Below, in pieces: positions 39,920 to 64,000 of a stretch of DNA of 64,000 bases (within the stretch, counting starts at the first letter, position 1; each line of letters starts with the position of its first letter). The DNA comes from Roseibacillus sp. (GTDB lineage Bacteria; Verrucomicrobiota; Verrucomicrobiia; Verrucomicrobiales; Akkermansiaceae). Location: assembly GCA_022448985.1 (NCBI GenBank), contig JAKVCR010000001.1, positions 4,217 through 68,216 of the forward strand, written 5' to 3'. The notes below the pieces were generated by a model. The model was not told where the DNA came from and did no database searches. It saw only the letters and a list, made by a program, of their open reading frames with translations. The position numbers were made by a program, and so were the translations under genes.

Positions 39920-39930
39920 TTTTCTTTCAG

Positions 39931-41947: not shown

Positions 41948-42100
41948 ATGGAGCAACTGAGCTTCTCGGCCCGGGCCTATGATCGGATCCTGAAGGTGGC
42001 CCGGACGGTCGCAGACCTGGACGATTCAGGCGTGCTCCGTGCAACCCGCCTGATGGAAGCGATCCAGTACCGGAGTTTCGATCGTAAGTTGATGCGTTAG
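41948..42100 (+). pseudogene. headless duplicate of the comM 3' end (repeat copy B spans 41947-42111)
   Basis: [50 protein letters not shown] compared with the comM C-terminus [50 protein letters not shown]. There is no ATPase body upstream. Confidence 0.85.
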
Positions 42101-42132
42101 TACGAATCCTGGCCCCCCCCAACCAAACCCAA

Positions 42133-42816: not shown

Positions 42817-42907
42817 GAATTGAGGGTGGGGTGTCCCTGTAATTCAGGGGTATGAAAAATGGCCGGGGATCTCTCCAAATCGGTTCATCCCCGAACCATC
42901 ACGTCGG

Positions 42908-47293: not shown

Positions 47294-47521
47294 GATGGGT
47301 TGGGGGGTGCAGGAAATAACCGGCTGGACCAATAAGGCTCAAGGGGAACTGTGACGATTCCCGGGGGGCTCCGTCAAGGCGCAAGGAAGCACCCAAGCCA
47401 CTGGCAGCTCGTGGCCCTGTTCCCCGGTTCACCGGGACCGATTGCCCGGCCAGGGGTCGGCAGGGAGGTCCCGTGTTCTCTGTCGGGTTCGGGCCCTGCA
47501 GGATTCTATGATGCGGGCGGG

Positions 47522-48016: not shown

Positions 48017-48218
48017 ATTTTGTCTGTTCTACGGCGCCAACATAGGACGTAAAATACCGAGTCCAAGGGATATTTCGTGTCTCTGGTTATTGTGATTGAG
48101 ACCGTGTCTCATCTGCCTGACAGAAGCAGATGGGGAGTCCGCGCCAGGTGAGCTGGTGCAGGGATGAGAGGACCTGTGTGTCGGGGGCGTCCAATGGCCC
48201 CTTGTTCCCTGCAGGTGA

Positions 48219-48944
48219 TTACCAGGCGGCCTGTGCCTTCTTGAGCTCTTCGGCACTCAGGCCGAAGGCTTTCAACACGCCGGTGGCCATCATCTTGTTG
48301 CCATCGGGGTTCATGTGTACCCCATCGCTGGTGAGCAGCTTGCCGCCCTTCTTGTCTGCGCTGGCGGCTATCGCGGCCTGCATGTCGGCATTCAGGTCGG
48401 CCAGGAGGCATTTCTTTTCCTTGGCCAGCTCCTTGAGAAAATCGTTGTAGGTGGCCAGCCTCTTGTTGTTGGCGTTGTCCTTGTCCTCGCCGATCATGGT
48501 GGAGGTCAGGATCATGACCTTGACCCCGGCGCTCTGGCAGCGGTCGACGATCTTGGTGATATTGACCTTGTAGTCCTCGAGGGACACGCCGCGTTTGCCG
48601 TGCCAGACGTCGTTGACGCCGCAGCTGAGAGTCATCCAGTTGGGCTTCTTGCTGAGCACGTGGGGCTCGAGGCGGGCGAGCATCTGATTGGACTTGTGGC
48701 CACTGATGCCGGCGGGAATGGCAGAGGTTTTCACTCCGGCAGATTCCAGCCCGCGGATGACGAGCCGGACGTAGCCGTTGGGGCGGGCGCCAGCCTGGGT
48801 GATGGAGTCCCCGAGGAAGGCAATCTTCTCTCCTTCCTTCACGCCGATATCGGCCTGAAGAGGAATGGAGAGGCCAACGAGGGCGGTGGCGGTGAGGGCG
48901 AGGCGGGTTGTATTCCTGCTGATGGAGGGGCTGATGGTTTTCAT
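48219..48944 (-). CDS. SGNH/GDSL-family hydrolase, secreted
   Basis: Block I IAFLGDSIT, block III GVNDV, and block V DGVHMNPDG. Signal peptide from ATG 48944. Confidence 0.8.
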   Translation of the reverse strand: MKTISPSISRNTTRLALTATALVGLSIPLQADIGVKEGEKIAFLGDSITQAGARPNGYVRLVIRGLESAGVKTSAIPAGISGHKSNQMLARLEPHVLSKKPNWMTLSCGVNDVWHGKRGVSLEDYKVNITKIVDRCQSAGVKVMILTSTMIGEDKDNANNKRLATYNDFLKELAKEKKCLLADLNADMQAAIAASADKKGGKLLTSDGVHMNPDGNKMMATGVLKAFGLSAEELKKAQAAW

Positions 48945-49075
48945 GTCTTTCGGCGTGCTGGCTGGGCTTGAGACCCGCAGGGTCACGGGTTGTTTGGGGG
49001 ATCTGCCGATATCGGGGCGGATGAGTCAACGGGAATCGGAAGAGTGGTCTGCCTCCCTCCCGGCGACGAGGCGTC

Positions 49076-50113
49076 TCACACGCCCACGGAATCCTGGGAG
49101 GAATTGAGTTTCACGGAGGGATTCTCCGCGACGTTGACCCAGACATGAACATGGGGGCGGCCACGGAAGTACCAGACAAAGGAGGGGCCTTCCAACCGCC
49201 AGTTGTCGTAAATCTTGTCGTCACCAAGGTCTCCTTCCTTGTAGAAGGCGAGGTGGCAGCCATCGAGTCCACCCTGGGACTTGAGGCACCTGCTCACTTC
49301 ATCGCGATCTGATTGCCGGAAGGGTTCAAGGAGGATCTTGAGGATCCGCTGGACCTCGCTTCGCTGGTCATCGGTGAAGTCGCTGACCGGGCAGCCCTGG
49401 AACGCCCCCCCCTTGCCCTTGAAACCGACCAGTTCCTCGGAAGGCATGCCGTGAGTGAGAAGGGCCTCCTTTCGCTGCGAGCGACTCAGCGTCTGGAAGA
49501 GCTTGTTGGCCTCTACGGCCTGATGCCAGAAGACATTGTTCGGGTGATCGGGTTTTTCGTAGAGGCGCTCTCCTTCATGGGCGTAGAGGATGGGTCCTCC
49601 AAAGGCGACATGTTCGGCGCTGTCGCCGTCGCAGCGCAGGGTCATGTGACGACTGGTGAGGACGAACTGGAACTTGCCACTTCCCGGTTCACCGAAAATG
49701 GCGATGGATTGCCGCTTGCCGAATCCGCCCACATCGTCCTTGAGTTGCTGGTCGAAGCGCTCGTGCCAATCGGGGCTGGTCATGCCTTCAAAGATGCCCC
49801 GGATGAGGGCTTGCTGATCCTTGTTGTAGAAGTTGCTGGCCACGATGGGATTGGTGATGCGCCAGTTGTTCTCGATCCGGGTGCGCAGGAGCCCGCGCTT
49901 CGGGTCGACATGGTCCCAGGCGAAGCACATGGCCTTGCGTTGTTTCTCGTTGAGGGACTCGTAAAGGACTTTTACCAGGGACTCCGCGGGAGCGGCCTTC
50001 TGGACAGGCTGCCCGGCAGAGAGCAGGGAACCGGTTGGTCCGAGGATTCCCAGGGCCGCGGCGGTGGAAGAACGGAGAAAGTGGCGGCGTTCGAGAGGCG
50101 TGGCTGCGTTCAT
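49076..50113 (-). CDS. Tat-signal protein, DUF3500-like
   Basis: The Tat-like N-terminus is ERRHFLRSSTAAALG. The C-terminal ..WRLEGPSFVWYFRG.PHVHVWVN resembles the conserved end of DUF3500 proteins. The family call is from memory only. Confidence 0.5.
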   Translation of the reverse strand: MNAATPLERRHFLRSSTAAALGILGPTGSLLSAGQPVQKAAPAESLVKVLYESLNEKQRKAMCFAWDHVDPKRGLLRTRIENNWRITNPIVASNFYNKDQQALIRGIFEGMTSPDWHERFDQQLKDDVGGFGKRQSIAIFGEPGSGKFQFVLTSRHMTLRCDGDSAEHVAFGGPILYAHEGERLYEKPDHPNNVFWHQAVEANKLFQTLSRSQRKEALLTHGMPSEELVGFKGKGGAFQGCPVSDFTDDQRSEVQRILKILLEPFRQSDRDEVSRCLKSQGGLDGCHLAFYKEGDLGDDKIYDNWRLEGPSFVWYFRGRPHVHVWVNVAENPSVKLNSSQDSVGV

Positions 50114-50325
50114 TACGGCAGGATGAGCACATTCGGCAACGGATGCAATTTGGCTTTCTGATAAGTGGACCGATAGCGCGAAAGCCTGAGGAGGGGAGGA
50201 ATGCCGCCTGAAAAATTCAGGGCGTGTCCGGCCGGGATACAGGGGATTGTCATGCCAGGGGACCCTGAAGAGCCGGGGCTCCTTCCGGATTGACGCAATG
50301 CCTCAACTTGAGCAGGTATATTGTC

Positions 50326-51693
50326 ATGAAGCGGAACTGCTCCCGGCGGATTTTCTCAATCGTCGTCCTCTCCCTCCTGGGTTTCGGAGGATTCTGTGTC
50401 CTCGCAGCGGAAAAGGCGCACAACTGGTCGCAGTTCCGTGGTCCCGGGGCACGGGGCGTGGCGAATCACCAGAACCTTCCGGAGAAATGGTCCGCGACTG
50501 AGAACGTGGAGTGGAAGCGTGATCTGCCCGGCCGCGGGTGGTCCTGTCCGGTTGTCTGGGGCAACCGTGTCTTTCTCACCACCGTGATCAACGAAGGGGT
50601 CTCAGAGAAGCCCAAGAAGGGGCTCTACTTCGGGGGGAATCGACCCAAGTTTCCGGAGACCGTCCACCGCTGGAAGGTCTACTGCCTTGATCTTGAGAAC
50701 GGGAAGATTCTCTGGGAGCGCGAGGTTCACAAGGGCAAGCCGCAGTCCGCCATTCATGTCAAGAACAGCTACGCTTCCGAGACGCCGGTGACCGACGGGG
50801 AACGGGTCTACTGCTACTTCGGGAACCTGGGGATCTTCGTTTTTGACATGGACGGCAAGCCGCAGTGGTCCCGGAAGTTCACTCCCCGCAAGACGCGCTA
50901 CAGCTGGGGGACGGCGGCCTCCCCGGTCCTGCACGGGGATCGCCTCTATATCGTCAATGATAACGAAGTGGATTCCTGGCTGCTCGCCCTCGACAGGAAA
51001 ACCGGCAAGGAAGCCTGGAAGGTCACCCGGGAAGAGAAGAGTAACTGGTCCGTCCCCTTTATCTGGGAGAATAAAGCGCGGACCGAGATCGTGGTGCCGG
51101 GGAGCGGGCGCACAGTCTCCTATGATCTCGCAGGGCGGGAGCTCTGGTGGTGGCGCCGCGGAATGTCGAGCATCACGATTGCCACCCCCTACGCATCGGA
51201 GGAGTTGCTCTACATCAGCTCGGGTTACGTGGGCGACAAGAAGAAGCCGATTTACGCTATCAAGCCGGGGGCGAAGGGAGACATCTCGATAAAACCGTTC
51301 AAGAAGAGCGATAATGAGTTCGTGGCCTGGTGCAACTGGGAGGCTGCGCCCTATAACCCGAGCACCCTGCTTTACGATGGACAACTCTACTCGCTCCTTG
51401 ATCGTGGCTGGCTGCGTGCCCTTGATCCTAAGAGTGGTGCTTTCATTTATGAGCGCAAACGCCTTCCCCCCGGGGCGGGCTACACCGTGTCTCCGTGGGC
51501 TTATAACGGCAGGATCTTCTGCCTCAATGAGGATGGCGAAACGCGGGTGATCCAGGCCGGCAGGGAGTTCAAGTATCTCCATACCAATCGACTGGCGGAA
51601 GATGACATGGCCATGTCCTGTCCCGCCATCGCCGGGGAGCGTCTTCTCATCCGGACCGCTGCACGGGTTTATTGTATCCGGAAGAAGGGATAG
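50326..51693 (+). CDS. PQQ-like (BamB-like) beta-propeller repeat protein, secreted
   Basis: Signal peptide, then WSQFRGPG..G.......P..W......W......G.S.PVV.G.RVF.T and repeated propeller-blade motifs. Confidence 0.78.
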   Translation: MKRNCSRRIFSIVVLSLLGFGGFCVLAAEKAHNWSQFRGPGARGVANHQNLPEKWSATENVEWKRDLPGRGWSCPVVWGNRVFLTTVINEGVSEKPKKGLYFGGNRPKFPETVHRWKVYCLDLENGKILWEREVHKGKPQSAIHVKNSYASETPVTDGERVYCYFGNLGIFVFDMDGKPQWSRKFTPRKTRYSWGTAASPVLHGDRLYIVNDNEVDSWLLALDRKTGKEAWKVTREEKSNWSVPFIWENKARTEIVVPGSGRTVSYDLAGRELWWWRRGMSSITIATPYASEELLYISSGYVGDKKKPIYAIKPGAKGDISIKPFKKSDNEFVAWCNWEAAPYNPSTLLYDGQLYSLLDRGWLRALDPKSGAFIYERKRLPPGAGYTVSPWAYNGRIFCLNEDGETRVIQAGREFKYLHTNRLAEDDMAMSCPAIAGERLLIRTAARVYCIRKKG

Positions 51694-51710
51694 CGGGAAG
51701 GAGGAGCCTG

Positions 51711-52181
51711 CTAGTCTTTTCGCCGGTTACGTTTCGGCTTGAGGAATTTCTTCGGGGTGGAGAGGGGGCTCGCTACCCGCCCGGTGCTGAGTTCGATAAT
51801 GGTGACCTGGCGGGGAGAGCCGATTTCGTCGAGGCGCAGTTCATAGGTTTCGTCCGCGCGGGCCTCAAATCCGAAGGGCGCGATACCACGTATGGTGCGC
51901 AGGCCGCGCTTGAGGGTGAAGACCACCGTGCCGGCCGGAACGCGGTAGCGGCGGGGAGCGAGAACCTCATAGGATGTTTCAAAGCGGAGAAGCCAGCCGT
52001 TGATGAGTTTTTCCTCGGGACCAATGAGCCGGCGTCCGGTGAAAGGCTCTTCCACAGGCATCACGATGGTGGCGAAGCCTTCGTTGCGGGTGATGACATT
52101 GGAGGCGTGCCGGGTCGGGGAGCAACCCGGGGAGAAGATGGCGAGGAGCAGGACCAGCACCAGGGCGGATGGCATGCGCAT
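51711..52181 (-). CDS. hypothetical lipoprotein
   Basis: MRMPSALVLVLLLAIFSPGC is a signal with a lipobox. I recognise no family. Confidence 0.45.
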   Translation of the reverse strand: MRMPSALVLVLLLAIFSPGCSPTRHASNVITRNEGFATIVMPVEEPFTGRRLIGPEEKLINGWLLRFETSYEVLAPRRYRVPAGTVVFTLKRGLRTIRGIAPFGFEARADETYELRLDEIGSPRQVTIIELSTGRVASPLSTPKKFLKPKRNRRKD

Positions 52182-52409
52182 GGCATGGCTATGCCTGAAT
52201 GCAGGGGCAGGTGCGATGTAAAAGGGCCTCTGCAACACGGGGAGCGGACCAACACGAATAGGGTATGATCTGGTGAGAATAGCGGAACTTTGGTCCGGAC
52301 CGGACGGGCGCGTCTTGTTATTTGTTTGCAGTCAGTTAATTTCCTAGCGGTGGTGCTGTGGAGCGCTGCCACCTTCACCCGTTAAACGATACCCCTCCGA
52401 ATTCCTCTG

Positions 52410-55400
52410 ATGAACAAGCTTCTTCATCTGAACATGGCGATTCCAGCTGCTCTTTGGCTGTGCCAGGCAGTTTCCGCCCAGAATGTCATCAGTGTGAATT
52501 TCGATGGTCAGGCGGGCACGGGTACTCCTGGTCCGGTAACTGGTGTCGCGGGTTCGATCCCGGTCGACAACTGGAACAATAGCGGCGTGTCCGTCCTGAA
52601 TGGGCCCCTTTCTCTTGTCGACGATGCCGGCTCTCCCACTACGGCTACCGTCCTCTGGTCCGTGGAAAACCAATGGACCACCAATGGCGGTAACAACAGT
52701 GGGGGTGATGTCCAGATGATGCAGGGCTATCTGGACAACTTCCATGATCGACCCCCGATCGAGGTCACCGGGATACCGGCTTCCTTCCAGGCAAGCGGCT
52801 ACGAATTACGAATCTATCACAATACCGACAGTGGCGGGACAATGGGGTTTACTGTCAGTGATGACGGGGGGCTCACCTCGACCACCTACTATAGTCATCA
52901 ACCGGGCGGCAATAACTCGAACTATCCCCTGGCCGGAGCCGATCCGTTCGGAGGCGCAGCCGGATACATCGGCAGCCAGTCCACTGCGAGGAACACGACG
53001 GTTCCCTCGAATTACACCCTCTTCACTGGCCTGACCGGTTCTTCACTGAGGATCACCGGCGTCCGGGGTTCATCGGGCGACACCCGTTCGCGCCCCAACG
53101 GTTTTCAAATCGTGGCCAAGGCAGTGCCGGGTGCGCCCATGGTGGAAAACAATCCAGCTACCGGGATTACAGCCCGTTCAGCCCGTCTCAATGGAACGGT
53201 AACCGATGTCGGAACGGCTGCGCCTGTGGTGACGATCTACTATGGCGACAACGATGGTCTGGCTAATCCGGAGGATTGGGACAATGCGCTCGAACTGCCC
53301 GGGACGTGGGCCGGTGCCTTTTCCGCCAACGTGACCGACCTGAACCCGGGCAGAACCTATTATTACCGGTCCTATGCAAGCAATGCGTCGGGCGCGCGCT
53401 GGGCTCCCGCCAGTGATTCATTTCAGACCGGGGTGGAGCCTCCGGCGCTGGCGAACCTGCCCGCCACCGGGATCATGACGAACAGCGCCGAGATCGGTGC
53501 GGAGGTGACGAGCACGGGAGGAGAGGTGCCGCTTGTGACTGTCTACTATGGCTTGACGGACGGCGGCACCACGGAGGGGGACTGGGATAGCTTCGCCCTG
53601 CTGGGGGCCCAGTCGGGGGTGGCCACCACCACGGTCACCGGCCTGCAGACAGGTCGCTCCTACTTTTACAGGGCCCGGGGGGTGAATGGAGGGGGAACGG
53701 TCTGGGCCCCGGCCACCGCCAGCTTCGCCACCGCAGAGCCGGCACCGCCCAGCGTGGTGAATCGTGGGGCAGACGGGGTACGGGGTGGCTCTGCCAACCT
53801 GCGGGGGGAAGTGACTGAAAACGGTTTTGATGCTCCTGCGATCACCATTTACTACGGAGACAACGATGGTGGGATCGATCCCACTTCCTGGGACAGTGCA
53901 GTAACGATTGGGCAGCGGACCGGTCAGTTCTCTCTCTACGTTTCCGATCTGGTGCCACTCACCACATACTATTTCCGCTGCCGGGCCACCAATGTGGCGG
54001 GCACTGCCTGGGCACCGGGCAGCGAGACCTTTACGACCACCGACCTGCTTAGCAGTTCGATTGTGATAAACGAGATCCACTACGATCACGAACCGAAGAC
54101 CGAACGGGGCGAGTTCATTGAGATTTTCAATCCGAGTGACTCTCCTGTTCCGCTGACTGGCTGGCAGATTAATGGGGCGATTGATTTTGATTTCCCGGAG
54201 GGCACCGTGATCGCGGCCAACGGGTTCCTCGTGATCGCGGAGGATCCCGCGGCCATGAGATCGGTGTTCGGGGTCAGAAATGCCCTTGGACCCTATGTCG
54301 GACGGCTGAGTAACGATGGTGAGCGCCTTGAACTGGAAAACGAGAACGGATCTCTGGTGGACGAGGTTGACTATGGGATCGGATTTCCCTGGCCCACTGC
54401 TTCCCGGGGAGGGGGGACCTCGATGGAGCTTATCAATGAGAATCTCGACAACGACCTGGGAAGTTCCTGGCGGGCCTCCGGCAATGCCGCGCCAGCGGGA
54501 GCGCAGGTCACTTATGTCGAAGCAGGGCAATCGTGGCGTTACCGTAAAGGCACGAGCGAAGCCTCCAACCCGGTTGACGCCTGGCGCATGCAGGGTTTTT
54601 CCGAAGACGAGACCTGGGTGACCGGGACCGCTGGGTTCGGCTACGGGGACAGTGACGACACCACGACCCTGGACGACATGAGGAACAACTACGCAAGCGT
54701 CTTCCTGCGCAAGGAATTCAACCTCACCGGGACCATTCCCACCCGGCTCGAGATCCGTGTCTATCACGATGACGGGGCGATCGTCTGGATCAACGGCGAG
54801 GAAGTGGCACGGGTGAGCGTGGACCAGGGTGATCTCACCTACCGGGGAGCGCGGGCCTCCGATCCACCGGGGGCTGCGCCTGGCAGCGCGGTCAACAACC
54901 AGGAGGCGACTTGGACCGACATTCTGTTCCTTGGCGCGCAAAACACGCTTCAGCCGGGTGTGAACACCGTGGCCGTGCAGGGTTTTAACAGTACCCTTTC
55001 GAGCAGCGATTTCTCGCTGGATTGCGAAGTGAAGACGCCTCCCCCGGGTAACCCGGACAACGCCGCGACAGGAGATCCCACTCCCGGGGCAGCCAATTCC
55101 GTATATGCGGCCAACGCTCCTCCCAATATCAGGCAGGTTGAGCATGGCCCCTCACAACCTGCCGAGGGTCAGGAGGTGGTGGTTACTGCCAAGGTGACCG
55201 ACCCTGACGGGGTAGCAAACGTGACCCTGACCTATCAGCTGGTGGAACCGGGTTCCTACGTTCACAAGGAGGATTCTGCATACGAAAACGGCTGGGTGCC
55301 CCTCGCCATGGTGGACGACGGGACGGGTGGGGATGAGGCGGCAGGCGATTCGGTTTTCACGGTGACCATGCCCGCCGGGTTACAGGTGCATCGCCGTCTC

Positions 55401-58076
55401 ATTCGTTACCGCATCACGGTGGAAGACGTCCCGGGTAATGCCCAGCAGACTCCCTATGAGGACGATGAGTCACCGAACTTCGCCTACTTCTGTTACAACG
55501 GGGTACCGGACTGGTCAGGGTCCAAGCGGCCCGGGGTGCTTCGTAGCGTCAACTACCGCGCTTCCGCACTCGACAGCATTGCGGTCTATCACCTGATAAC
55601 GAAGGAATCCGATGTGATCCAGTGCCAGTGGAGCGGACCGACCGACGGTGTCTACCGCTACCTGGGGACATGGGTCTACGATGGGAAGGTCTACGATCAC
55701 ATGCGCTATCGGATCCGGGGTAATGCTTCCGTCCGCCAGGCGGGAAAGAACAAGTGGAAATTCAATTTCAACCGGGCCCGGCCCTTCGAGGCCCGTGACA
55801 ATTACGGGCGCAGGTATGATGTGCCCTGGGACAAGATCAACGGACTGGCCGCCACCAACCCGTGGTGGCGCAACAATGTCGCTACTGACGGCACGGTCTA
55901 CGGTGAGTCCCTCGGGTTCCGCCTGTATCAACTGGCAGGTGGACTCGCCAGCAACACGCAGTTCTATCACTTCCGCGTCATTGACAAGGTGGCGGAGGCA
56001 CCTTCAGACCAGTACGACGGCGACTTCTGGGGCCTCTACATCGCGGTCGAGCAACCCGACATCAAGTTCCTTGAGGCCCGCAACATGCCCGATGGGAACC
56101 TCTATAATGTCCACGGCGGGTCGGGATCGACCAAGCGGGCCCAGGGCTCGAACCAGGTGAGCGACAAGTCGGACCTCTTCGCGTTCCAGGGGTTGCACAG
56201 CAGCGGAACCCCCCAGTCGCGGTGGGAGGCCAACCTCGACTTCGACCACTACTTCGCCTTCAACGCGATGAACCTCGCAATCAACAACTCCGACATGCGC
56301 CCGCAGGACAACGTGAACTATTATCACAATTCGGAGACCGGCAAGTGGCACATCCTTCCATGGGATATCGACCTGACCTTCGAGGATGCGCCCCATTGGG
56401 GCCGGGGAGACACCTCTGCCTGGGAGAGCATCTATCACTGCCTGCAGTATTCGAGCATCAACCAAGCTTATGAAAACAAGGTACGAGAAATCCTCAACCT
56501 TCTCCTCGACAATGACCAGTCCCCCCACCTGGTTGATGAATTCGCCGGTTTCCTGACCAAGGGTGGCCGGCAGAATATCGTGGAAGCGGGACAGGCAGTC
56601 TGGGACTACCATCCGCGCAAGACCAAGAAGGGGATCTGGTACGGCAACTTCAATTCGTCGCTCCTGCCCAGCCGGAGCTTTGCGGGTCTCACCCAGTACA
56701 CCAAGGACTTCCTGACGGTGCGCGGCTACGGTCGCAGCAACCTGGCAAGCAAGGCGGTTGACAGCGCGATCCCTTACAAGCCCACCATCGGCTACACGGG
56801 CCCGGATGGATATCCCGTTGACGGACTGGCCTTCCAGTCCTCGTCTTTCAACGATCCACAGGGACGCAGCACCTTCGGATCGATGGAGTGGCGTATCGGG
56901 GAAATCCGCAATCCGGACACTCCCAATTACGTGGAGGGGGATCGCTACATTTACGAGATCGAGACCTACTACCAGAGTGACCGGCTTACACCATTCCAGG
57001 GGCAGTTCACCTTCCCGACAGCCGAGGTGAGACCCGGTCGGACCTACCGCGCCCGGGTGCGGCACCTCGACAACAGTGGCCGTGCCAGCCACTGGTCCAA
57101 TCCGGTGGAATTCACCGCCACCACCCCGGACCTGGATTCCTGGACCAGCAACCTGATGGTCACCGAGGTTCATTATAATCCCCTTCCTGCCAGTGCAGCT
57201 GAAATCGCGGCCGGATTCGTCACTTCCGATTTCGAGTTCATTGAGATCCAGAATATCAGTTCCACTCTCACCCTTGATCTTACCGACATCCGCTTCACGA
57301 AGGGAATCGACTTCGATTTCGCCGATGGCGTGATCACCAGTCTTGCTCCCGGTGCCTACGCCCTCGTGGTGCGTAACGAGGATGCCTTCGAGTCACGTTA
57401 CGGGGCAGGACTGCCAGTGGCGGGTAGCTACGGACCCGACAACCTTTCCAACGGGGGCGAAAACGTGAAACTCTCCTTTGGAGCCGGGGTCACCATCCAG
57501 GAGTTTCACTACCTCGACGTTGCGCCCTGGCCTTCCGCTCCGGATGGAACCGGGGTCTCTCTGGCCCTTGTGAATCCCGCTGTTGCTCCCGATCACGCTG
57601 ATCCCTTTAACTGGAGAGCCAGCGTGACGGTAGGCGGCAGCCCGGGGGAGGCCGAACAGACTGCGAGCCTGGTGAATTGGAGGAACGACAACTTCACCGC
57701 CGCCGAACTTGCCGATCCGAGCATCTCAGGTGACGCGGTCGACATTGACCTCGACGGGATGAACACCATCATGGAATACGCATTCGTGGGGGATCCCAGG
57801 TCCCCGGATCCGGAGCACCTGCCCCAGCTGTTGACGGTAACCGATGGTGGAGTGGACTACATTGGCCTTGCGATGCGCCGCCGGCTGGATGCCGGTGATC
57901 TGATCTATGAGGTCCAGGTATCCGATGACCTGAGGGATTGGACCGTGGAGAGCGATGCGGTGACGGTGAGTTCCGTGGCCAATGGTGATGGCTCGGTGAC
58001 GGAGATATTGCGGCTGCCGGGGACGATGGCCTCGGCGGGTCGAATGTTCCTGCGGGTGCGCGTTACAGTGCTCTGA
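52410..58076 (+). CDS. giant secreted CotH-kinase-family protein with two lamin-tail domains, FN3-like repeats and an unnamed N-terminal module
   Basis: Signal peptide. LTD-like segments are IVINEIHYDH..EFIEIFNP..PV.LTGW and LMVTEVHYNP..DFEFIEIQN...L.L. The CotH-like core is about aa 1050-1440 (..YDHMRYRIRGNASVRQAGKNKWKFNF.., ..FYHFRVID.., ..WGLYIAVEQPD..FL.., ..WHILPWDIDLTF..). Confidence 0.85.
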   Translation: MNKLLHLNMAIPAALWLCQAVSAQNVISVNFDGQAGTGTPGPVTGVAGSIPVDNWNNSGVSVLNGPLSLVDDAGSPTTATVLWSVENQWTTNGGNNSGGDVQMMQGYLDNFHDRPPIEVTGIPASFQASGYELRIYHNTDSGGTMGFTVSDDGGLTSTTYYSHQPGGNNSNYPLAGADPFGGAAGYIGSQSTARNTTVPSNYTLFTGLTGSSLRITGVRGSSGDTRSRPNGFQIVAKAVPGAPMVENNPATGITARSARLNGTVTDVGTAAPVVTIYYGDNDGLANPEDWDNALELPGTWAGAFSANVTDLNPGRTYYYRSYASNASGARWAPASDSFQTGVEPPALANLPATGIMTNSAEIGAEVTSTGGEVPLVTVYYGLTDGGTTEGDWDSFALLGAQSGVATTTVTGLQTGRSYFYRARGVNGGGTVWAPATASFATAEPAPPSVVNRGADGVRGGSANLRGEVTENGFDAPAITIYYGDNDGGIDPTSWDSAVTIGQRTGQFSLYVSDLVPLTTYYFRCRATNVAGTAWAPGSETFTTTDLLSSSIVINEIHYDHEPKTERGEFIEIFNPSDSPVPLTGWQINGAIDFDFPEGTVIAANGFLVIAEDPAAMRSVFGVRNALGPYVGRLSNDGERLELENENGSLVDEVDYGIGFPWPTASRGGGTSMELINENLDNDLGSSWRASGNAAPAGAQVTYVEAGQSWRYRKGTSEASNPVDAWRMQGFSEDETWVTGTAGFGYGDSDDTTTLDDMRNNYASVFLRKEFNLTGTIPTRLEIRVYHDDGAIVWINGEEVARVSVDQGDLTYRGARASDPPGAAPGSAVNNQEATWTDILFLGAQNTLQPGVNTVAVQGFNSTLSSSDFSLDCEVKTPPPGNPDNAATGDPTPGAANSVYAANAPPNIRQVEHGPSQPAEGQEVVVTAKVTDPDGVANVTLTYQLVEPGSYVHKEDSAYENGWVPLAMVDDGTGGDEAAGDSVFTVTMPAGLQVHRRLIRYRITVEDVPGNAQQTPYEDDESPNFAYFCYNGVPDWSGSKRPGVLRSVNYRASALDSIAVYHLITKESDVIQCQWSGPTDGVYRYLGTWVYDGKVYDHMRYRIRGNASVRQAGKNKWKFNFNRARPFEARDNYGRRYDVPWDKINGLAATNPWWRNNVATDGTVYGESLGFRLYQLAGGLASNTQFYHFRVIDKVAEAPSDQYDGDFWGLYIAVEQPDIKFLEARNMPDGNLYNVHGGSGSTKRAQGSNQVSDKSDLFAFQGLHSSGTPQSRWEANLDFDHYFAFNAMNLAINNSDMRPQDNVNYYHNSETGKWHILPWDIDLTFEDAPHWGRGDTSAWESIYHCLQYSSINQAYENKVREILNLLLDNDQSPHLVDEFAGFLTKGGRQNIVEAGQAVWDYHPRKTKKGIWYGNFNSSLLPSRSFAGLTQYTKDFLTVRGYGRSNLASKAVDSAIPYKPTIGYTGPDGYPVDGLAFQSSSFNDPQGRSTFGSMEWRIGEIRNPDTPNYVEGDRYIYEIETYYQSDRLTPFQGQFTFPTAEVRPGRTYRARVRHLDNSGRASHWSNPVEFTATTPDLDSWTSNLMVTEVHYNPLPASAAEIAAGFVTSDFEFIEIQNISSTLTLDLTDIRFTKGIDFDFADGVITSLAPGAYALVVRNEDAFESRYGAGLPVAGSYGPDNLSNGGENVKLSFGAGVTIQEFHYLDVAPWPSAPDGTGVSLALVNPAVAPDHADPFNWRASVTVGGSPGEAEQTASLVNWRNDNFTAAELADPSISGDAVDIDLDGMNTIMEYAFVGDPRSPDPEHLPQLLTVTDGGVDYIGLAMRRRLDAGDLIYEVQVSDDLRDWTVESDAVTVSSVANGDGSVTEILRLPGTMASAGRMFLRVRVTVL

Positions 58077-58221
58077 CCCCGTGCTGGAGGGGACAAGCGG
58101 GGAAAGTGTTCAGGTTTCCTTATTATATGGGCCGTGTTGCTTTGAGCGGCTCCCAATAAAGAAGGCGATTTTTTTGGGTTATTCTGTTTACAACAGGCGC
58201 TGGGACTCATTAATTGGCCCT

Positions 58222-58233
58222 AACCCATTCAAC
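58222..58233 (+). promoter_or_regulatory. AACCCATTCAAC leader motif directly upstream of the start codon
   Basis: The same 9-mer unit AACCCATTC occurs twice in tandem at 63202-63219 in front of the paralogous gene. Its function is unknown. Confidence 0.3.
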
Positions 58234-58235
58234 GC

Positions 58236-59012
58236 ATGAAACTCAATAAACTCATCATCGCCCTCGCCTCTTGCGGCTCATTAGTCGTGGGGGTCAATGC
58301 AGCCAGTACAATCAGCCTGAACTTCGATGGTCAGGACGGGGTCGGAACTCCCGGCGCGGTCACTGGTGTAGCAGGGGCTGTCCCGGTCGGTAACTGGAAC
58401 AACACTGGAACTGGAAATGGTGGGAATGTTGGCGCAGCAGTGGCCCTTGTCGACTCAAGCGGTGCCGCCTCCGGTGCTACCGTGAGCTGGAACGTGGCCA
58501 ACCACTGGTCCACCAATGGTGGAGACAGCTCTGGCGGCGATGCCCAGATGATGCAGGGGTATCTTGACAACTTCCACGACCGCGATGCGATTGAGGTCAC
58601 CATCCCCGGCTCCTTCCAGGCCAGCGGTTACGAACTCCGGATTTATCACAATACGGATAGTGCCGGCACGATGGGTTTCACCGTTAGTGATGGGCTCATT
58701 ACCAACACCCACTACAGTCACCAGGCGGGTGGGAATGGAACGAACTTTCCCCTTGCGGGAGCTGATCCGTTCGGGGGCGCGGCTGGCTACATCGGCAGCC
58801 AGGACACCAATGCGGGCACCACGACACCTTCGAACTACACCCTCTTCACGGGATTGTCCGGTGACACGCTGACGATCGCCGGTGTCCGCGGAGCTGCCGG
58901 CGACACCCGTTCACGTCCTAACGCGTTTCAGATTACCCAGGTTCCCGAGCCGACCTCCATGTTGCTCGTGCTGCTTGGAGCGGCAGGCGTGTTCGTTCGC
59001 CGCAGGCGTTAA
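58236..59012 (+). CDS. PEP-CTERM-anchored protein consisting only of the shared N-terminal module
   Basis: Signal peptide, then the ~210-aa module, then a C-terminal VPEPTSMLLVLLGAAGVFVRRRR (PEP motif + TM helix + Arg cluster), which is a PEP-CTERM sorting signal. Confidence 0.85.
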   Translation: MKLNKLIIALASCGSLVVGVNAASTISLNFDGQDGVGTPGAVTGVAGAVPVGNWNNTGTGNGGNVGAAVALVDSSGAASGATVSWNVANHWSTNGGDSSGGDAQMMQGYLDNFHDRDAIEVTIPGSFQASGYELRIYHNTDSAGTMGFTVSDGLITNTHYSHQAGGNGTNFPLAGADPFGGAAGYIGSQDTNAGTTTPSNYTLFTGLSGDTLTIAGVRGAAGDTRSRPNAFQITQVPEPTSMLLVLLGAAGVFVRRRR

Positions 59013-59077
59013 GTGGGCGTCAGTCCCGAAGGGTTTCATATGATCTACAGCTGGGAAATGGATTTCCCTGCTCTGCT

Positions 59078-59110
59078 CACCCGCCAGTTTCCTGGCGGGT
59101 GATTTTTTTT
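59078..59110 (+). terminator. Rho-independent terminator after the PEP-CTERM gene
   Basis: Perfect 10-bp stem cacccgccag / ctggcgggtg with loop tttc, followed by a-tttttttt. Confidence 0.85.
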
Positions 59111-59135
59111 GAGACTTTCTCGGACCGTGCATGAG

Positions 59136-62100
59136 ATGGCCAGATATCATCCCTCCGTTCGGAGACTTGTAGCGGGCTCGGCCCTTGCACTTGGCTTCGT
59201 TGTGCTTGCCGCCTGCGAAGGTCCCGAAGTCAGAGGGGGAGGCGGCAGCCGGAACGAGGGCAATCCGCCAGTGGGCGCGTCGCAACCGGATTCCACGCCC
59301 GTCCCGACTGCTCCGGAGGGATCCCTGGCGGCGAGGCCTCTGGCGACGCGTCCTGACCCGACGGGCGAAACCCTCTTCGAGCGGCTTGTTCCGGAGCAGA
59401 CCGGGGTCGCCTTTCAAAACAGGATCGATATCACCCATCCCCTCAAGCGCCTTTACCATTCCGGGTTCGTGTGTGGCGGGGTGGCCATAGGGGATCTCGA
59501 CGGGGATGAGCGTCCTGATCTCTTCCTTGTGAGCGGACCAGGACAGAACAAACTCTACCGGCAGACGGAAACCGCTTTCCGGTTTGAGGACATCACTGCG
59601 GCAGCCGGGGTGGATGGAGGAAAGGCCTGGGGGACCGGGGCAGCGCTGGCCGATCTTGATAACGATGGCGACCTCGATATCTACGTCTGCAACTACGACT
59701 CTCCCAATGCGCTTTACCTCAACGACGGGACGGGAAAGTTTGAAGAGGCTGCCGCCAGGTTCGGCCTTGCCCAGGTGGATGCCTGCCTCCTGCCGACTTT
59801 CTGTGATTACGACCAGGACGGAGATCTTGATGTGTTTCTCCTGACCAACCGCTTCTACCGGGAGGGGGGCCGCCCTGCGAATCCTCCCTTTGAGCAGGCT
59901 GGTAATGGCAGGGCGTTGGTCAAGCCGGAGTTCAGGAAATTCTATGCCCTCACCGAGAAGGGGCCGGGTAACTACGACATGGATGAAGTAGGCCGCCCCG
60001 ATATCCTGCTGCGTAATGACGACGGCATGTTCACGGATGTCAGCGTGGCGGCCGGAATTCAAACGCGTGGCCATGGCCTGGCAGCCACCTGGTGGGACTA
60101 TGACCAGGATGGGCTGATGGATCTCTACGTCTGTAATGACTTCGCGGATCCTGACAACCTGTTCCGCAACAATGGAGACGGCACCTTCACCAATGCCATC
60201 ACCTCGGTCGTCAATTACACTCCCTGGTTTTCCATGGGGGCTGATGCGGGGGACATCAACAACGACGGGCAACTCGATTTCGTGGTCCTCGATATGGCGG
60301 CCACCACACACTACAAGTCCAAGATGGCAATGGGGGAGATGGGTGTCATGCGTTACATCATCGAGAAGGCCCTGCCCCGCCAGGTGATGCGTAACTGCCT
60401 TTACGTCAGTACCGGGACGGGACGCTACACAGAATGTGCAAGCCTTTCCGGCGTATCCAACTCGGATTGGTCGTGGGCTGCGAAGCTGGCCGACTTTGAT
60501 AATGACGGACGGGTCGATCTCTTTATTTCCAACGGGATGGCGCGCGACTTCAACAACTCGGACATCACCTTCACGGTTGCGGACCAGATCGGGAAGAGCG
60601 AGTGGGATCACTACGAGAATTCGCCTACCAAGCCGGAGCAGAATCTCGCCTTTCGGAACAAGGGTGACTATGCCTTCGAGGATGTCAGCAAGGCATGGGG
60701 GCTCGATCACGTGGGCATGAGCTACGGTAGTGCCTACGGGGACCTCGATGGCGATGGTGATCTCGATATTGTCACGGTGAACCTGGAGGAACCCGTCAGC
60801 ATTTACCGCAATGCCGCCCACGAAGGGAACGTGGTGACGGTGTCCCTGCGCGGAGTGCGTTCCAACCGCTTCGGTCTCGGGGCGCTGGTCACCCTGGAAG
60901 CTGGCGGCACCAGGCACGTGCGGCAACTGGTGCCGATGAGTGGCTACCTTTCCAGTAACGAGCCGATTGTTCATGTCGGACTGGGAGAGGCCACTGCGAT
61001 CGACAAGCTGAGTGTGCGCTGGCCGGACGGTGGGGTGCAGGACTACCGGGATCTGCAGGCTAACCAGCACTACACCATCACGGAAGCGGGCAAGGCTCTT
61101 CCGGGGATGCAGCGCAAGAAACCGGATCCGCTTTTTGCCCCCGAGAAGCGTCTCCGGGGCATCGTGCACAAGGAGAGGATCTTCGAGGACTTCTCACGCC
61201 AACCACTCCTGCCTAACAAGCTTTCGCAACTCGGTCCGGGCATTGCGTTCGGGGACGTGGACGGTAATGGAAGCGAGGACTTTTTCGTTTCGACCGCGCG
61301 CGGACAGTCCGGCGCGATCTTCCTGAATGACGGGAAGGGCAATTTCCGGGTGGGGGCGACCTCGCCCTTTGACACCGACGAGGACAGCGAGGGCATGGGC
61401 GTTCTTTTCCTTGATGCCGACTCTGACGGGGACCAGGACCTCTACGTGGCCAATGGGAGCTACGAATATGACAGTGGGAGCCTGTTGACTCGTGACCGGC
61501 TCTACCTGAACAATGGGAAGGGGGAGTTTGCCAAGGCCTCCCTTGATGCCCTGCCGGCGTTCCGGGACAACAGCAGTTGCGTGGTGGCCGCGGACTTCGA
61601 CCGTGATGGGGACCTTGATCTTTTTGTAGGGGGACGGGTTGTTTCTGGTGATTACCCCATGCCCGCGCAGAGCCGCCTCCTCCTGAACGAGTCCAGTGAG
61701 GGCAAGGTGAGGTTTGTGGAAGCTCCTCCCGAGCGGGCCCCAGGCCTGCGCACCACAGGGATGGTCACCGGCGCCCTCTGGTCCGATGCTGATGGAGACG
61801 GTTGGATCGATCTCCTGGTCACGCACGAGTGGGGCCCGGTGAAGCTCTTTCGAAATGAAAAGGGCACGTTGGTTGATGTCACGGAAAAGAGCGGTTTGCA
61901 CAAGCACCTGGGCTGGTGGAACAGCATCACAGGGGGAGATCCTGACAATGATGGCGACATCGACTATGCGGTGGGTAATGTCGGGTTGAACACCAAGTAT
62001 CACGCTGATCCCGGACATCCGGTAATACTCTACTACGGAGATTACGGGGACGAGGGAGTGAAACGGCTGGTGGAGGCCAAGTACGAGAATGATGTCATCG

Positions 62101-62882
62101 TGCCCGCTCGCGGGAAGAGCTGTTCCACCAAGGCCATGCCGCACCTCAGTAAGAAGTTTGGCACCTTCCACCAGTTTGCGAGCGCGACCTTGCCCCAGAT
62201 TTATACCAAGGAATGCCTGAGCGAATCAGTAAAGCTCGAGGCCAACACCCTGGAATCCGGGATCTTCATCAACGACGGAAAGGGGGGCTTTTCCTTCCGG
62301 CCCCTTCCCAAGGCGGCCCAGTCGTCTGCGATCTTCGGCTTGGAATTCGTGGAGGTGGACGGTGACGGCAAACTGGACCTCTATGCGGTGCAGAACTTTT
62401 CCAACCCGCAATTCGAGACCCCTCCGTTCCGGGGTGGTCTGAGCGTTCTGCTTCGGGGTGACGGGAAAGGTGACTTTACCATGGTGTCGCACTCTGAAAG
62501 TGGATTAGTGGTACCCACCGATGGACGGGCACTGGCCTGCAGTGACTTTAACGGGGATGGCCGCCCTGACTTCCTGGTTGGTATCAACAATGGGGAACTG
62601 CTCGCCTTCACCAATCGTCGCACACCTGCCGCCGGGGTTCTCCGTCTGCAGGGGGAGGGGGGAAACCCTTCCGTTGCCGGTGCGCGGGTTACCCTGGTGA
62701 GTAAGGATGGAACGCGGGTGCAGGAGATCTACCAGGGTGGTGGTTATCTCTCCCAGTCGACGCCTACGATCTTCCTTGATCCGGATGTGATGCGTGTGGA
62801 AGTGGTCTGGCCGGACGGTTCCTCAAGTAGCCATCCGGTGGACCCCGCCACTCGGGAGACGGTCATTTCCGGCCCGCAGTAG
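59136..62882 (+). CDS. CRTAC1-family protein: two tandem FG-GAP/VCBS repeat + ASPIC/UnbV units, lipoprotein signal
   Basis: LAAC lipobox. Many D.D.DGD.D..V repeats. There are two UnbV/ASPIC-like ends (..SGYLSSNEPIVHVGLG......L.VRWPDG and ..GGGYLSQSTPTIFL......VEVVWPDG). Confidence 0.85.
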   Translation: MARYHPSVRRLVAGSALALGFVVLAACEGPEVRGGGGSRNEGNPPVGASQPDSTPVPTAPEGSLAARPLATRPDPTGETLFERLVPEQTGVAFQNRIDITHPLKRLYHSGFVCGGVAIGDLDGDERPDLFLVSGPGQNKLYRQTETAFRFEDITAAAGVDGGKAWGTGAALADLDNDGDLDIYVCNYDSPNALYLNDGTGKFEEAAARFGLAQVDACLLPTFCDYDQDGDLDVFLLTNRFYREGGRPANPPFEQAGNGRALVKPEFRKFYALTEKGPGNYDMDEVGRPDILLRNDDGMFTDVSVAAGIQTRGHGLAATWWDYDQDGLMDLYVCNDFADPDNLFRNNGDGTFTNAITSVVNYTPWFSMGADAGDINNDGQLDFVVLDMAATTHYKSKMAMGEMGVMRYIIEKALPRQVMRNCLYVSTGTGRYTECASLSGVSNSDWSWAAKLADFDNDGRVDLFISNGMARDFNNSDITFTVADQIGKSEWDHYENSPTKPEQNLAFRNKGDYAFEDVSKAWGLDHVGMSYGSAYGDLDGDGDLDIVTVNLEEPVSIYRNAAHEGNVVTVSLRGVRSNRFGLGALVTLEAGGTRHVRQLVPMSGYLSSNEPIVHVGLGEATAIDKLSVRWPDGGVQDYRDLQANQHYTITEAGKALPGMQRKKPDPLFAPEKRLRGIVHKERIFEDFSRQPLLPNKLSQLGPGIAFGDVDGNGSEDFFVSTARGQSGAIFLNDGKGNFRVGATSPFDTDEDSEGMGVLFLDADSDGDQDLYVANGSYEYDSGSLLTRDRLYLNNGKGEFAKASLDALPAFRDNSSCVVAADFDRDGDLDLFVGGRVVSGDYPMPAQSRLLLNESSEGKVRFVEAPPERAPGLRTTGMVTGALWSDADGDGWIDLLVTHEWGPVKLFRNEKGTLVDVTEKSGLHKHLGWWNSITGGDPDNDGDIDYAVGNVGLNTKYHADPGHPVILYYGDYGDEGVKRLVEAKYENDVIVPARGKSCSTKAMPHLSKKFGTFHQFASATLPQIYTKECLSESVKLEANTLESGIFINDGKGGFSFRPLPKAAQSSAIFGLEFVEVDGDGKLDLYAVQNFSNPQFETPPFRGGLSVLLRGDGKGDFTMVSHSESGLVVPTDGRALACSDFNGDGRPDFLVGINNGELLAFTNRRTPAAGVLRLQGEGGNPSVAGARVTLVSKDGTRVQEIYQGGGYLSQSTPTIFLDPDVMRVEVVWPDGSSSSHPVDPATRETVISGPQ

Positions 62883-63201
62883 AAATTTTCCGGGGGCGGA
62901 GAGTTGCTCACAAATCAGGATGAAGATGAGATATATGGATCTCTGAAATTCAGAGCTCCATCACTGGAGGGATCCACCCGCAAAAATTGGCATCCTGATT
63001 ATAACAGATTCCGGCGAACAGGACTCCATTATGATGGATACCCGGAACTTTTCGCTGTCAGTAATACTCGTCTGTCCCGGTCTCATTCTCCGTGTTGGCT
63101 GAGTCCTGCTCACGCACGGAACTGCAATTCTTCTTTCGTTCTGATGTTCGAATTCTTAATCGTATAGGAGCGTCTCGTCTCAGAGATCGCTCCTGTTTCA
63201 C

Positions 63202-63224
63202 AACCCATTCAACCCATTCAACCT
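63202..63224 (+). promoter_or_regulatory. tandem AACCCATTC AACCCATTC AACC leader motif
   Basis: Ends 6 nt upstream of ATG 63231. It matches the leader motif at 58222-58233. Confidence 0.3.
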
Positions 63225-63230
63225 AATCTC

Positions 63231-64000
63231 ATGAAACATTACCCTGTGAGAAAGAACAAGTCGGCTACGTGGTGCGCGGTCGCATTTTGCCTGACGGTCG
63301 CGAGCGCTTTCGCCCAGTCGGTCATCAGCTTGAACTTCGACGGCCAGGATGGCACCGGCACTCCTGGTGCGGTCACCGGGGTGGCGGGTTCGGTCCCGGC
63401 CGGTAACTGGAACAATACCGGAACCGGAAACGGCGGCAATGTCGGGAATGGGGTTGCCCTTGTCGACGACAGCGGTGCCGCCACCGGTGCGACGGTGAAC
63501 TGGTCGGTGGCCAACCACTGGACCACGAATGGTGGAGACAGCAACGGGGGCGATGCCCAGATGATGCAGGGCTACCTCGATAATTTCCACGACCAGCCCC
63601 CGATCGAGGTGAACGGGATACCGGCTTCCTTCCAGGGCAGCGGCTACGAACTGCGGATTTATCACAACACCGACAGCGCGGGGACGATGGGCTTCACCGT
63701 CGATGATGGCAGTGGTCCGGTGACCTACTACAGTCACCAGACCGGGGGCAATGGCTCGAACTATCCCCTCGCGGGCGCTGATGAGTTCGGGGGTGCGGTC
63801 GGCTACATAGGCAGCCAGGACACTAATGCGGGCACCACGACGCCCTCGAATTACACCCTCTTCACGGGATTGACCGGTTCGTCACTGACGATCACCGGTG
63901 TCCGGGGTGCTGCGGGTGACACCCGTTCGCGTCCCAACGGGTTCCAGATCGTGGCGACCGGTGCTGTCACGGACGAGGATGGGGATGGCCTGGCCGACAA
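63231..64000 (+). CDS. third paralogue of the shared N-terminal module, continuing into a DxDxDG segment (3' end outside window)
   Basis: ATG 63231 and open to the window edge, so it is not in the ORF track. Translation is MKHYPVRKNKSATWCAVAFCLTVASAFAQSVISLNFDGQDGTGTPGAVTGVAGSVPAGNWNN...GDTRSRPNGFQIVATGAVTDEDGDGLAD. It looks roughly 80% identical to the 58236 protein by eye. Confidence 0.8.
   Translation, partial: MKHYPVRKNKSATWCAVAFCLTVASAFAQSVISLNFDGQDGTGTPGAVTGVAGSVPAGNWNNTGTGNGGNVGNGVALVDDSGAATGATVNWSVANHWTTNGGDSNGGDAQMMQGYLDNFHDQPPIEVNGIPASFQGSGYELRIYHNTDSAGTMGFTVDDGSGPVTYYSHQTGGNGSNYPLAGADEFGGAVGYIGSQDTNAGTTTPSNYTLFTGLTGSSLTITGVRGAAGDTRSRPNGFQIVATGAVTDEDGDGLAD

Follow-up and report, generated by a model that had tools for sequence, protein, structure and literature searches.

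CBM6, CBM35 and CBM61 are all-beta sandwich domains that serve as non-catalytic accessories of secreted proteins and often occur in tandem, and the single-module chains matched in this analysis have 128-146 residues. The alpha-agarase Cm-AGA is composed of CBM6 plus TSP3 (PMC11311870). Laminin_G_3, a concanavalin-A-like lectin domain (PF13385), is also an extracellular beta-sandwich. PEP-CTERM proteins, which are linked to exopolysaccharide production, are diverse, mostly show no homology to described proteins and are encoded chiefly by single-gene operons, as reported by Haft et al. in 2006 (PMC1569441). The PEP-CTERM subfamily and Haft's 'choice-of-anchor' models of NCBIfam cover secreted domains of undescribed function, which are followed by PEP-CTERM tails in part of their proteins and by other endings in the rest.

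Our analysis of a 64,000-nt stretch of Roseibacillus DNA (hereafter the window) revealed a repeated module that resembles these domains in part. Like the CBMs, it is predicted to be an all-beta sandwich and a non-catalytic, secreted accessory that can occur in tandem; however, it measures approximately 210 aa, and its invariant motifs NWNN, MMxGYLD and RxxPNGxQI are unmatched by any Pfam or NCBIfam model. It is found in the same proteins as Laminin_G_3 but shares no sequence similarity with that domain, and ConA-type Foldseek matches were at noise level (probability 0.04-0.08). It has the varied endings of the choice-of-anchor domains, although none of the PEP-CTERM subfamily or choice-of-anchor models reached its cut-off on the module. 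Three copies (~213 aa) lie in the window, each immediately 3' of a signal peptide (called by eye from the sequence), and the features of the region are as follows.

52410..58076, forward strand: gene A, ORF of 1888 aa; signal peptide, module, three fn3-like repeats, LTD, CotH, second LTD and a small C-terminal domain
52479..53117, forward strand: module copy A, gene A aa 24-236 (HMM positions 1-211, i-E 3.1e-74)
58236..59012, forward strand: gene B, 258 aa; signal peptide, module and PEP-CTERM anchor signal (VPEP, hydrophobic helix, RRRR)
58302..58940, forward strand: module copy B, gene B aa 23-235 (HMM i-E 1.4e-72), the sequence used for the AF2 model
58938..59009, forward strand: PEP-CTERM sorting signal of gene B, aa 235-258 (PF07589, TIGR02595)
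59077..59102, forward strand: intrinsic-terminator-like hairpin directly 3' of gene B (11-bp stem, 8 G-C pairs, T8 tail; consensus scan only)
59109..62882, forward strand: gene for an FG-GAP / ASPIC-UnbV repeat protein of 1257 aa that lacks the module (Pfam FG-GAP_3 7.3e-85, UnbV_ASPIC 2.1e-31)
63231..64000, forward strand: 5' part of gene C, which the window end cuts; signal peptide, module and onset of Asp-rich TSP3-type repeats
63315..63956, forward strand: module copy C1 (HMM i-E 1.9e-77)
63972..63998, forward strand: DEDGDGLAD, the first Asp-rich Ca-loop-like motif 3' of module C1, read from the sequence

The family HMM recovered all three copies at i-E values of 1e-72 to 1e-77, at the genes in which the initial annotation had placed them behind signal peptides, and detected no fourth copy on either strand of the 64-kb window. 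The accompanying description, a module present three times in 12 kb, holds for the window but understates the arrangement, since syntenic Roseibacillus loci contain a four-gene cluster with 6-7 modules in approximately 17 kb, and the window boundary cuts this cluster. Gene D, located 3' of gene C in those loci, has at least two modules. The FG-GAP / ASPIC-UnbV gene keeps its position between genes B and C in loci L001, L006 and L002.

The three contexts given in the initial annotation, namely fusion to FN3/LTD/CotH, a PEP-CTERM anchor directly after the module and a following DEDGDGLAD segment, were all recovered. In gene A, Pfam detected LTD (4.8e-28, aa 549-656), CotH (3.1e-21, aa 1101-1383) and fn3 (2.3e-10); the CotH region scored 76.7 bits against PF08757 (cut-off 23.8), which makes it a putative member of the CotH kinase family. 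The small C-terminal domain ends in MFLRVRVTVL, and the orthologues in L006 and L007 are also 1888 aa long with identical Pfam content. The gene B product is identical to protein P0001 and 90% identical to P0002. Its tail, QVPEPTSMLLVLLGAAGVFVRRRR, scored 28.4 bits against PF07589 (cut-off 20.7) and 27.1 bits against TIGR02595 (cut-off 16), and the protein has a PEP motif, a hydrophobic helix and an extreme C-terminal basic cluster in addition to the N-terminal signal peptide. Matches such as that of NF038129, whose cut-off of 65 bits contrasts with the 22-23 bits of gene B and P0016, cover only the last strands and the tail. An exosortase model found no match among the 10 window ORFs scanned between 35191 and 52235; PEP-CTERM was present in 44 of the 86 short relatives.

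The window part of gene C, which includes just nine residues (DEDGDGLAD) of the Asp-rich segment, had no Pfam match. Its orthologues (L001:14927-18616 and L006:15041-18673) encode 1210-1229 aa with 2-3 modules each, and their Asp-rich segments appear to be bacterial TSP3 repeats, with scores against PF18884 TSP3_bac (cut-off 25) of 27.3 bits for L006 and 22.7 for L001; P0010 scored 30 bits against the same model. Past the second TSP3 block, L001 has a Laminin_G_3 domain (aa 818-965) and L006 has a divergent module (aa 749-960) at roughly the same place, which amounts to a natural domain swap.

Profile searches of Pfam and NCBIfam gave no family at E <= 1 over gene A aa 24-236, gene B aa 23-235 or the gene C copy. 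Among 127 relatives searched against both collections, the PEP-CTERM tail was the only family matched by more than five. A sequence search of the PDB returned no match at E <= 10 with a 3-sequence profile and only Gly-rich linker noise (E >= 0.33) with an 88-sequence profile. Pfam CBM models did not match the window copies at E <= 1, and the listing of the 25 families most often matched by the 86 short relatives at E <= 10 contained no CBM model. The sole hint was GH101_dom-5 (PF21466), which two of these 86 matched (best E 1.7e-4) but no window copy did at E <= 1. Our literature search found nothing specific to the domain or the locus. By these searches the module appears to belong to no named family, in line with the initial annotation, which could not assign it to one.

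The family is broad. A word-indexed search had returned 21 proteins, all from Roseibacillus; this tiny family was a sensitivity artefact, and the exhaustive search gave at least 404 clusters at 50% identity. Most members are single-module proteins, but a protein may have 1-4 copies (up to four in tandem) in N-terminal, internal or C-terminal position. In a set of relatives biased by collection, and with categories that overlap, 115 of the 313 full-length instances (in 257 relatives) were N-terminal, 103 ended the protein and 55 were followed directly by a PEP-CTERM-like tail; the 95 instances in none of these categories are mostly internal. The module was initially regarded as a portable N-terminal head; it is portable, with varied downstream parts, but its position is not specifically N-terminal. 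Its partners in relatives include the known carbohydrate-binding families Laminin_G_3, PA14 and F5_F8_type_C, dockerin, Ig-like and TSP3 domains as well as DMFA2_C and Beta_helix, and the module appears to be appended to varied domain types in the manner of an accessory module. Fusion to CotH is limited to the Roseibacillus gene A orthologues, and the 25 Pfam partners listed as most frequent in 41 long relatives did not include CotH. Beyond the PVC bacteria, some relatives bear the MAG names of Polyangia and Bacteroidota, and two contigs catalogued as viral in IMG/VR encode the module in giant ORFs alongside lectin-type domains. The genomic neighbourhoods of three distant members, in which exosortase, CAZyme and EPS genes were sought, had no consistent content and no CAZyme clusters.

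An AF2 model of module B alone, built with 88 sequences, reached a pLDDT of 91.8 and a pTM of 0.92, in agreement with the earlier view of a structured fold rather than low complexity. This model replaced a first one (19 close sequences, signal peptide and anchor included), which had a pLDDT of 75. The predicted structure is almost entirely beta, a sandwich of about 14 strands. Across the 88 diverse sequences, A24, G25, W32, G86, Y115, R203, N207 and Q210 are invariant and N33, W63, M83, M84, Y87, D89, Y110, Y179 and F182 nearly so. Many of the conserved residues are aromatic or polar.

Foldseek searches of the PDB with either model gave nothing at E <= 1e-3. The best matches of the module-only model (E ~0.04-0.06) were to Cry toxins, a phage T7 tail, CBM6, CBM61 and GH101. 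CBM6 (2cdo, 2cdp, 8j3x), CBM35 (2w1w) and CBM61 (2xom) recurred as weak neighbours of the glycan-binding jelly-roll kind, with E of 0.02-0.12, TM-scores of 0.25-0.31 (query) or 0.35-0.47 (target) and rmsd of 5.8-12 A. Further weak neighbours were the CBM6-bearing alpha-agarase 9m0b, GH101 accessory domains, including domain 5 (PF21466; 2zxq, 5a55, 3ecq), and Cry-toxin chains (4moa, 6owk, 1dlc); for the latter two groups the structural scores were not significant. TM-scores were low overall (0.24-0.34 query-normalised and at most 0.47 normalised to the small CBM targets; rmsd ~6-12 A). Since no match reached E <= 1e-3, the resemblance to CBMs is one of general topology only. The module thus does not map cleanly onto a known CBM or lectin family, nor is it disordered, and on the model it is best described as an unnamed, putatively extracellular beta-sandwich (jelly-roll-like) domain family of ~210 aa.

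The beta fold with its weak jelly-roll CBM neighbours, the partners from known carbohydrate-binding families, the occurrence of 1-4 copies at variable positions, the exchange of Laminin_G_3 for a module in gene C and the surface display through PEP-CTERM together suggest a non-catalytic, CBM- or lectin-type module that binds a polysaccharide or other glycan, a reading to which we give an even chance. That the module, which is predicted to be secreted, binds something, as the recognition or adhesion role proposed in the initial annotation would require, is probable from the fold and partner domains, and a glycan is the candidate ligand, which could come from the exopolysaccharide matrix of the cell itself, from algae or from the environment. 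Gene B would then use PEP-CTERM/exosortase sorting to present a bare module at the cell surface, and the module of gene A would position a CotH-family kinase-like protein that is secreted. In genes C and D, strings of 2-3 modules are combined with Ca-binding TSP3 repeats and further lectin-type domains and may provide multivalent binding; the module-TSP3-module arrangement of gene C resembles the CBM6 and TSP3 composition of Cm-AGA (PMC11311870).

One alternative, that the copies are alike through composition, as Gly/Asn/Thr-rich low complexity, or through an artefact of assembly or duplication, draws on the G-, N-, T- and S-rich sequence of the module and on the long antisense ORFs that overlie each copy. 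Its probability is negligible, and it was refuted by family HMM E-values of 1e-72 or lower, the confident fold, the occurrence of orthologous copies in identical order in independent assemblies and the divergence of the copies. The window copies share 70-83% protein identity and just 70-78% nucleotide identity, with pairwise dS of 0.87-1.29 and dN/dS of 0.15-0.18, so that substitutions are chiefly synonymous and the copies are paralogues of long standing. The module is a real domain under purifying selection. With dS near 1 and with A, B and C1 in orthologous positions in other genomes, recent duplication, gene conversion and assembly artefact were dropped as explanations for these copies. The gene D pair, which is more similar within a genome (95-97% identity) than between genomes (89-93%), may be an exception. 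A structural or matrix block with no specific ligand, either a spacer domain or a protein abundant at the surface or in the EPS matrix, comparable to other PEP-CTERM matrix proteins, would suit gene B, which is small, PEP-CTERM-sorted and followed by its own strong terminator-like hairpin. The diversity, low homology and single-gene operons of PEP-CTERM proteins described by Haft et al. (PMC1569441) point the same way, as does a weak, tail-level likeness of 11 relatives to the model of the flocculation protein PepA. However, particular aromatic and polar residues are strongly conserved across phyla, and the module is joined to large multidomain proteins at one end or the other, which favours a specific function over filler; we consider such a block unlikely.

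Another alternative is protein-protein docking or self-assembly: the unanchored modules of genes A, C and D would bind the anchored gene B product, or modules would oligomerise, to yield a cell-surface complex of the cohesin-dockerin-like or S-layer-type packing kind. Four adjacent genes of a conserved cluster share the module, only gene B has an anchor and consists solely of module and anchor, the paralogues are still 70-88% identical at dS ~1, and the gene D copies are closer within than across genomes. Yet single-module proteins prevail in the family, a partner was not seen in the three distant neighbourhoods, the giant ORFs of the viral contigs combine the module with lectin-type domains, and tandem modules beside LamG and PA14 fit multivalent glycan binding better, so we assign docking only a small probability. 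The ~210 aa of the module are within the size range of jelly-roll lyases and hydrolases, which favours a small jelly-roll enzyme such as a polysaccharide lyase or hydrolase, in which the invariant R203, N207, Q210 and Y115 and the near-invariant D89 and Y87 would form a candidate active site; many relatives also consist of a leader and a single module. Nevertheless, no PL7, PL18, GH16, GH11 or GH12 structure was among the Foldseek matches, neither the window copies nor the relatives matched a Pfam enzyme family, and the presence of up to four tandem copies per protein is unusual for catalytic domains. A PL7- or GH16-like enzyme, given this lack of structural or profile support and the tandem repetition, is ranked low and seems very unlikely.

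A glycan-binding module, our preferred reading, could be taken further. It is possible, albeit doubtful, that the module represents a new CBM family with a marine-glycan or EPS ligand in Verrucomicrobiota, other environmental bacteria and large viruses or, in a bolder version, a self-docking surface system. In the latter, secreted partners that bear the module, among them the CotH kinase-like protein, would dock onto the PEP-CTERM-anchored bare module of gene B as their receptor. A lectin-like module, the likely answer, would be useful but conceptually unsurprising and not a new kind of biology. The finding is a well-folded secreted domain without a database name that is repeated in a conserved surface-protein gene cluster of a marine Roseibacillus. 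The surface proteins of environmental Verrucomicrobiota, including the PEP-CTERM ones, are mostly unannotated, and the module is one recurrent building block that is now defined. Naming the domain would provide annotation for hundreds of 'hypothetical' proteins, and the module gives a handle on the targets of secreted bacterial CotH-family proteins. If its ligand were found, the CBMs could gain a family that bears on the turnover of marine polysaccharides or the assembly of biofilm matrix.

Translation of a six-frame ORF listing showed that three co-directional genes of the window (genes A, B and C) each encode one and the same module, an unnamed domain of ~210 aa, directly behind a signal-peptide-like leader. 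The in-house family HMM, run on both strands of the 64-kb window, matched all three copies at 1e-72 or better and found no fourth copy on either strand; thus, the initial annotation of one module behind three leaders was correct.

Module-bearing genes and module copies in the window
52410-58076, plus strand: gene A, 1888 aa
52479-53117, plus strand: module copy A, i-E-value 3e-74
58236-59012, plus strand: gene B, 258 aa
58302-58940, plus strand: module copy B, i-E-value 1e-72
from 63231, plus strand: gene C, truncated by the window end (ORF listing)
63315-63956, plus strand: module copy C1, i-E-value 2e-77

Pairwise, the copies shared 70-83% protein and 70-78% DNA identity, with dS of 0.87-1.29 and dN/dS of 0.15-0.18 (Nei-Gojobori). 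These values indicate old paralogues under purifying selection, and they rule out low-complexity coincidence, recent duplication and assembly artefact for the window copies. Long antisense ORFs on the minus strand overlap every copy (52344-52745, 58331-58721 and 63198-63737), as in the orthologues, and seem to be side effects of GC-rich codon usage rather than genes.

Pfam bore out the described fusion of the module to fn3, lamin-tail (LTD) and CotH domains in gene A, which carries three fn3-like repeats, LTD domains (4.8e-28) and a CotH domain (3.1e-21). Gene B consists of the module and a canonical PEP-CTERM signal (VPEP, hydrophobic helix, RRRR); its tail exceeded the cut-offs of both PF07589 (28.4 bits against 20.7) and TIGR02595 (27.1 against 16), confirming an anchor directly after the module. 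Genes B and C flank a gene for a 1257-aa FG-GAP/ASPIC-UnbV protein that lacks the module. The genes upstream of gene A include DUF3500, a PQQ_2 beta-propeller and a large fn3/Big_9 protein; no exosortase was matched among the 10 upstream ORFs scanned (35191-52235).

Neighboring features
42908-47332, minus strand: 1473-aa secreted-type protein, fn3 and Big_9, without the module
59077-59102, plus strand: strong terminator-like hairpin directly 3' of gene B, 11-bp stem and T8 tail (consensus scan)

The predicted hairpin lies just upstream of the TTG codon annotated as the start of the FG-GAP gene. An abundant transcript of gene B itself may terminate there, and the true start of the FG-GAP gene is probably further downstream than annotated.

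The C-terminus of gene A (57750-58073) holds a second unnamed element, a small beta-rich domain of ~80-100 aa that ends in [FY][FY]R[VL]... (...MFLRVRVTVL in gene A). It also occurs in the relatives P0012, P0022, P0026, P0028, P0045, P0052, P0100, P0117, P0118, P0137 and P0154, directly follows the module in at least 10 relatives, and had no Pfam or NCBIfam match. Such a domain could provide an alternative means of sorting or anchoring.

In a genome scan, close relatives were confined to Roseibacillus MAGs. Three loci, L001 (on a 472-kb contig) and L006 and L007 (both reached via the gene B orthologue P0004), were syntenic with the window in the order DUF3500, PQQ_2, small ORF, gene A (1888 aa), gene B, FG-GAP gene, gene C (1210-1229 aa) and a further gene D (1215 aa). 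The HMM counted six modules in L001 and seven in L006; the window thus truncates a larger conserved module cluster. Gene A is undivided (1888 aa) in the window, L006 and L007, whereas in L001 it is split into ORFs of 469 aa (L001:4169-5578) and 1391 aa (L001:5661-9836), perhaps through a frameshift, pseudogene formation or misassembly.

Syntenic gene C encodes two modules with Asp-rich repeats of the TSP3 type between them. The orthologues L001:14927-18616 and L006:15041-18673 are 86% identical over their first 745 aa; after the second TSP3 block, however, the former has a Laminin_G_3 domain (aa 818-965) and the latter a divergent module copy (aa 749-960, 32-37% identical to the others), a natural domain swap. 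A gene C orthologue fragment, P0007, is labeled 'Dehalococcoidia bacterium' at NCBI, yet shares 74% identity with the Roseibacillus module and is probably a mis-binned MAG contig.

In a neighbor-joining tree, the A copies grouped as orthologues, and the B copies of L001 and L006 paired with each other, as did their C1 copies; the window B and C1 copies did not sort cleanly into these pairs. Gene D has at least two modules.

Gene D modules in the syntenic loci
L001:19014-19640 and L001:20082-20708
L006:18980-19612 and L006:20054-20686

These were 95-97% identical within a genome but 89-93% between genomes, a difference that hints at local gene conversion or at repeated, independent tandem duplication.

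A pattern scan of IMG/VR located the module within giant ORFs of two contigs catalogued as viral.

Module-bearing ORFs in IMG/VR
L013:29-16573 (IMGVR_UViG_3300034788_001112, 58.6-kb contig): 5514 aa, module 51% identical to gene B
L014:6722-17122 (IMGVR_UViG_3300028196_001864, 128-kb contig): 3466 aa, module 41% identical to gene B

Both ORFs also bear Bact_surface_Ig-like, Laminin_G_3 and PA14 domains, and topoisomerase II and a clamp loader are encoded near that of L014. Such close similarity to the Roseibacillus subfamily in putative viral contigs points to horizontal exchange.

A word-indexed search returned only 21 proteins with the module; exhaustive phmmer against 1.84 billion cluster representatives returned 404 (E <= 1e-3), of which 102 reached E <= 1e-10. 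With a profile search, a further large subfamily came to light, with proteins of 330-470 aa (leader, Gly-rich linker and C-terminal module); three of its members had named sources, two in Polyangia and one in Bacteroidota. The 257 collected proteins contained 353 instances, one to four each. Within this set, which is biased by the way it was gathered, 115 of 313 full-length instances started within 60 residues of the N-terminus, 103 formed the protein's C-terminal end, 55 directly preceded a PEP-CTERM-like tail, and the 95 outside these overlapping categories are therefore mostly internal. The module is thus not specifically the N-terminal head initially proposed.

No Pfam model covered the module in 127 relatives, and every NCBIfam match on relatives was below cut-off and restricted to the tail. 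PEP-CTERM was the Pfam partner in 44 of 86 short relatives; others were TSP3_bac, Laminin_G_3, PA14, fn3, I-set and other Ig-like domains, F5_F8_type_C, dockerin, Beta_helix and DMFA2_C. CotH fusion was seen in Roseibacillus gene A orthologues only. The module is thus an extracellular domain that is mobile and free-standing.

AF2 gave a mediocre model of the full gene B protein from 19 close sequences (pLDDT 75); for the module alone, 88 diverse sequences yielded pLDDT 91.8 and pTM 0.92, with all segments at pLDDT >= 50. The module is therefore folded, not disordered, and is predicted to be a beta-sandwich of ~14 strands and two short helices. Foldseek found no PDB match at E <= 1e-3 for either model. 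The best matches (E 0.01-0.1, TM 0.2-0.47) recurrently included CBM6, CBM35, CBM61, the CBM6-bearing alpha-agarase 9m0b, GH101 enzymes and Cry-toxin chains; the predicted topology is thus jelly-roll and CBM-like without a close solved relative, the similarity to CBMs being non-significant. Two unnamed predicted viral structures matched better (E 4.6e-6, TMq 0.57; E 3.6e-4). The domain thus remained unnamed in every database test run (Pfam, NCBIfam and PDB), with no clean match to a described CBM or lectin family in the databases searched.

The reading with the best support, to which we give about even chances, is that the module would bind as a non-catalytic, lectin- or CBM-like unit of secreted proteins. 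Consistent with such binding are the secreted beta-sandwich fold, the many conserved aromatic and polar residues (W32, N33, W63, Y87, D89, Y110, Y115, R203, N207 and Q210), and the tandem repetition and attachment at either end of other domain types. The constant partners are known glycan-binding domains and Ca-binding TSP3 repeats, a make-up paralleled by alpha-agarase, which combines CBM6 and TSP3 (PMC11311870). The orthologue in which a module copy takes the place of a LamG domain points the same way, as does the frequent display by PEP-CTERM, a system that has been linked to the production of exopolysaccharide (PMC1569441). Protein-protein docking or self-assembly within the cluster seems unlikely, and a ligand-free matrix or structural role equally so; a small jelly-roll enzyme is somewhat less probable still, and an artefact is refuted.

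Haft et al. noted that such proteins show 'little homology to known proteins' (PMC1569441). The module represents a new family within a familiar class of domains, the extracellular beta-sandwich modules that serve as accessory units in the surface proteins of environmental bacteria; it is of moderate interest and no surprise, and it merits a ligand screen and an entry in Pfam.
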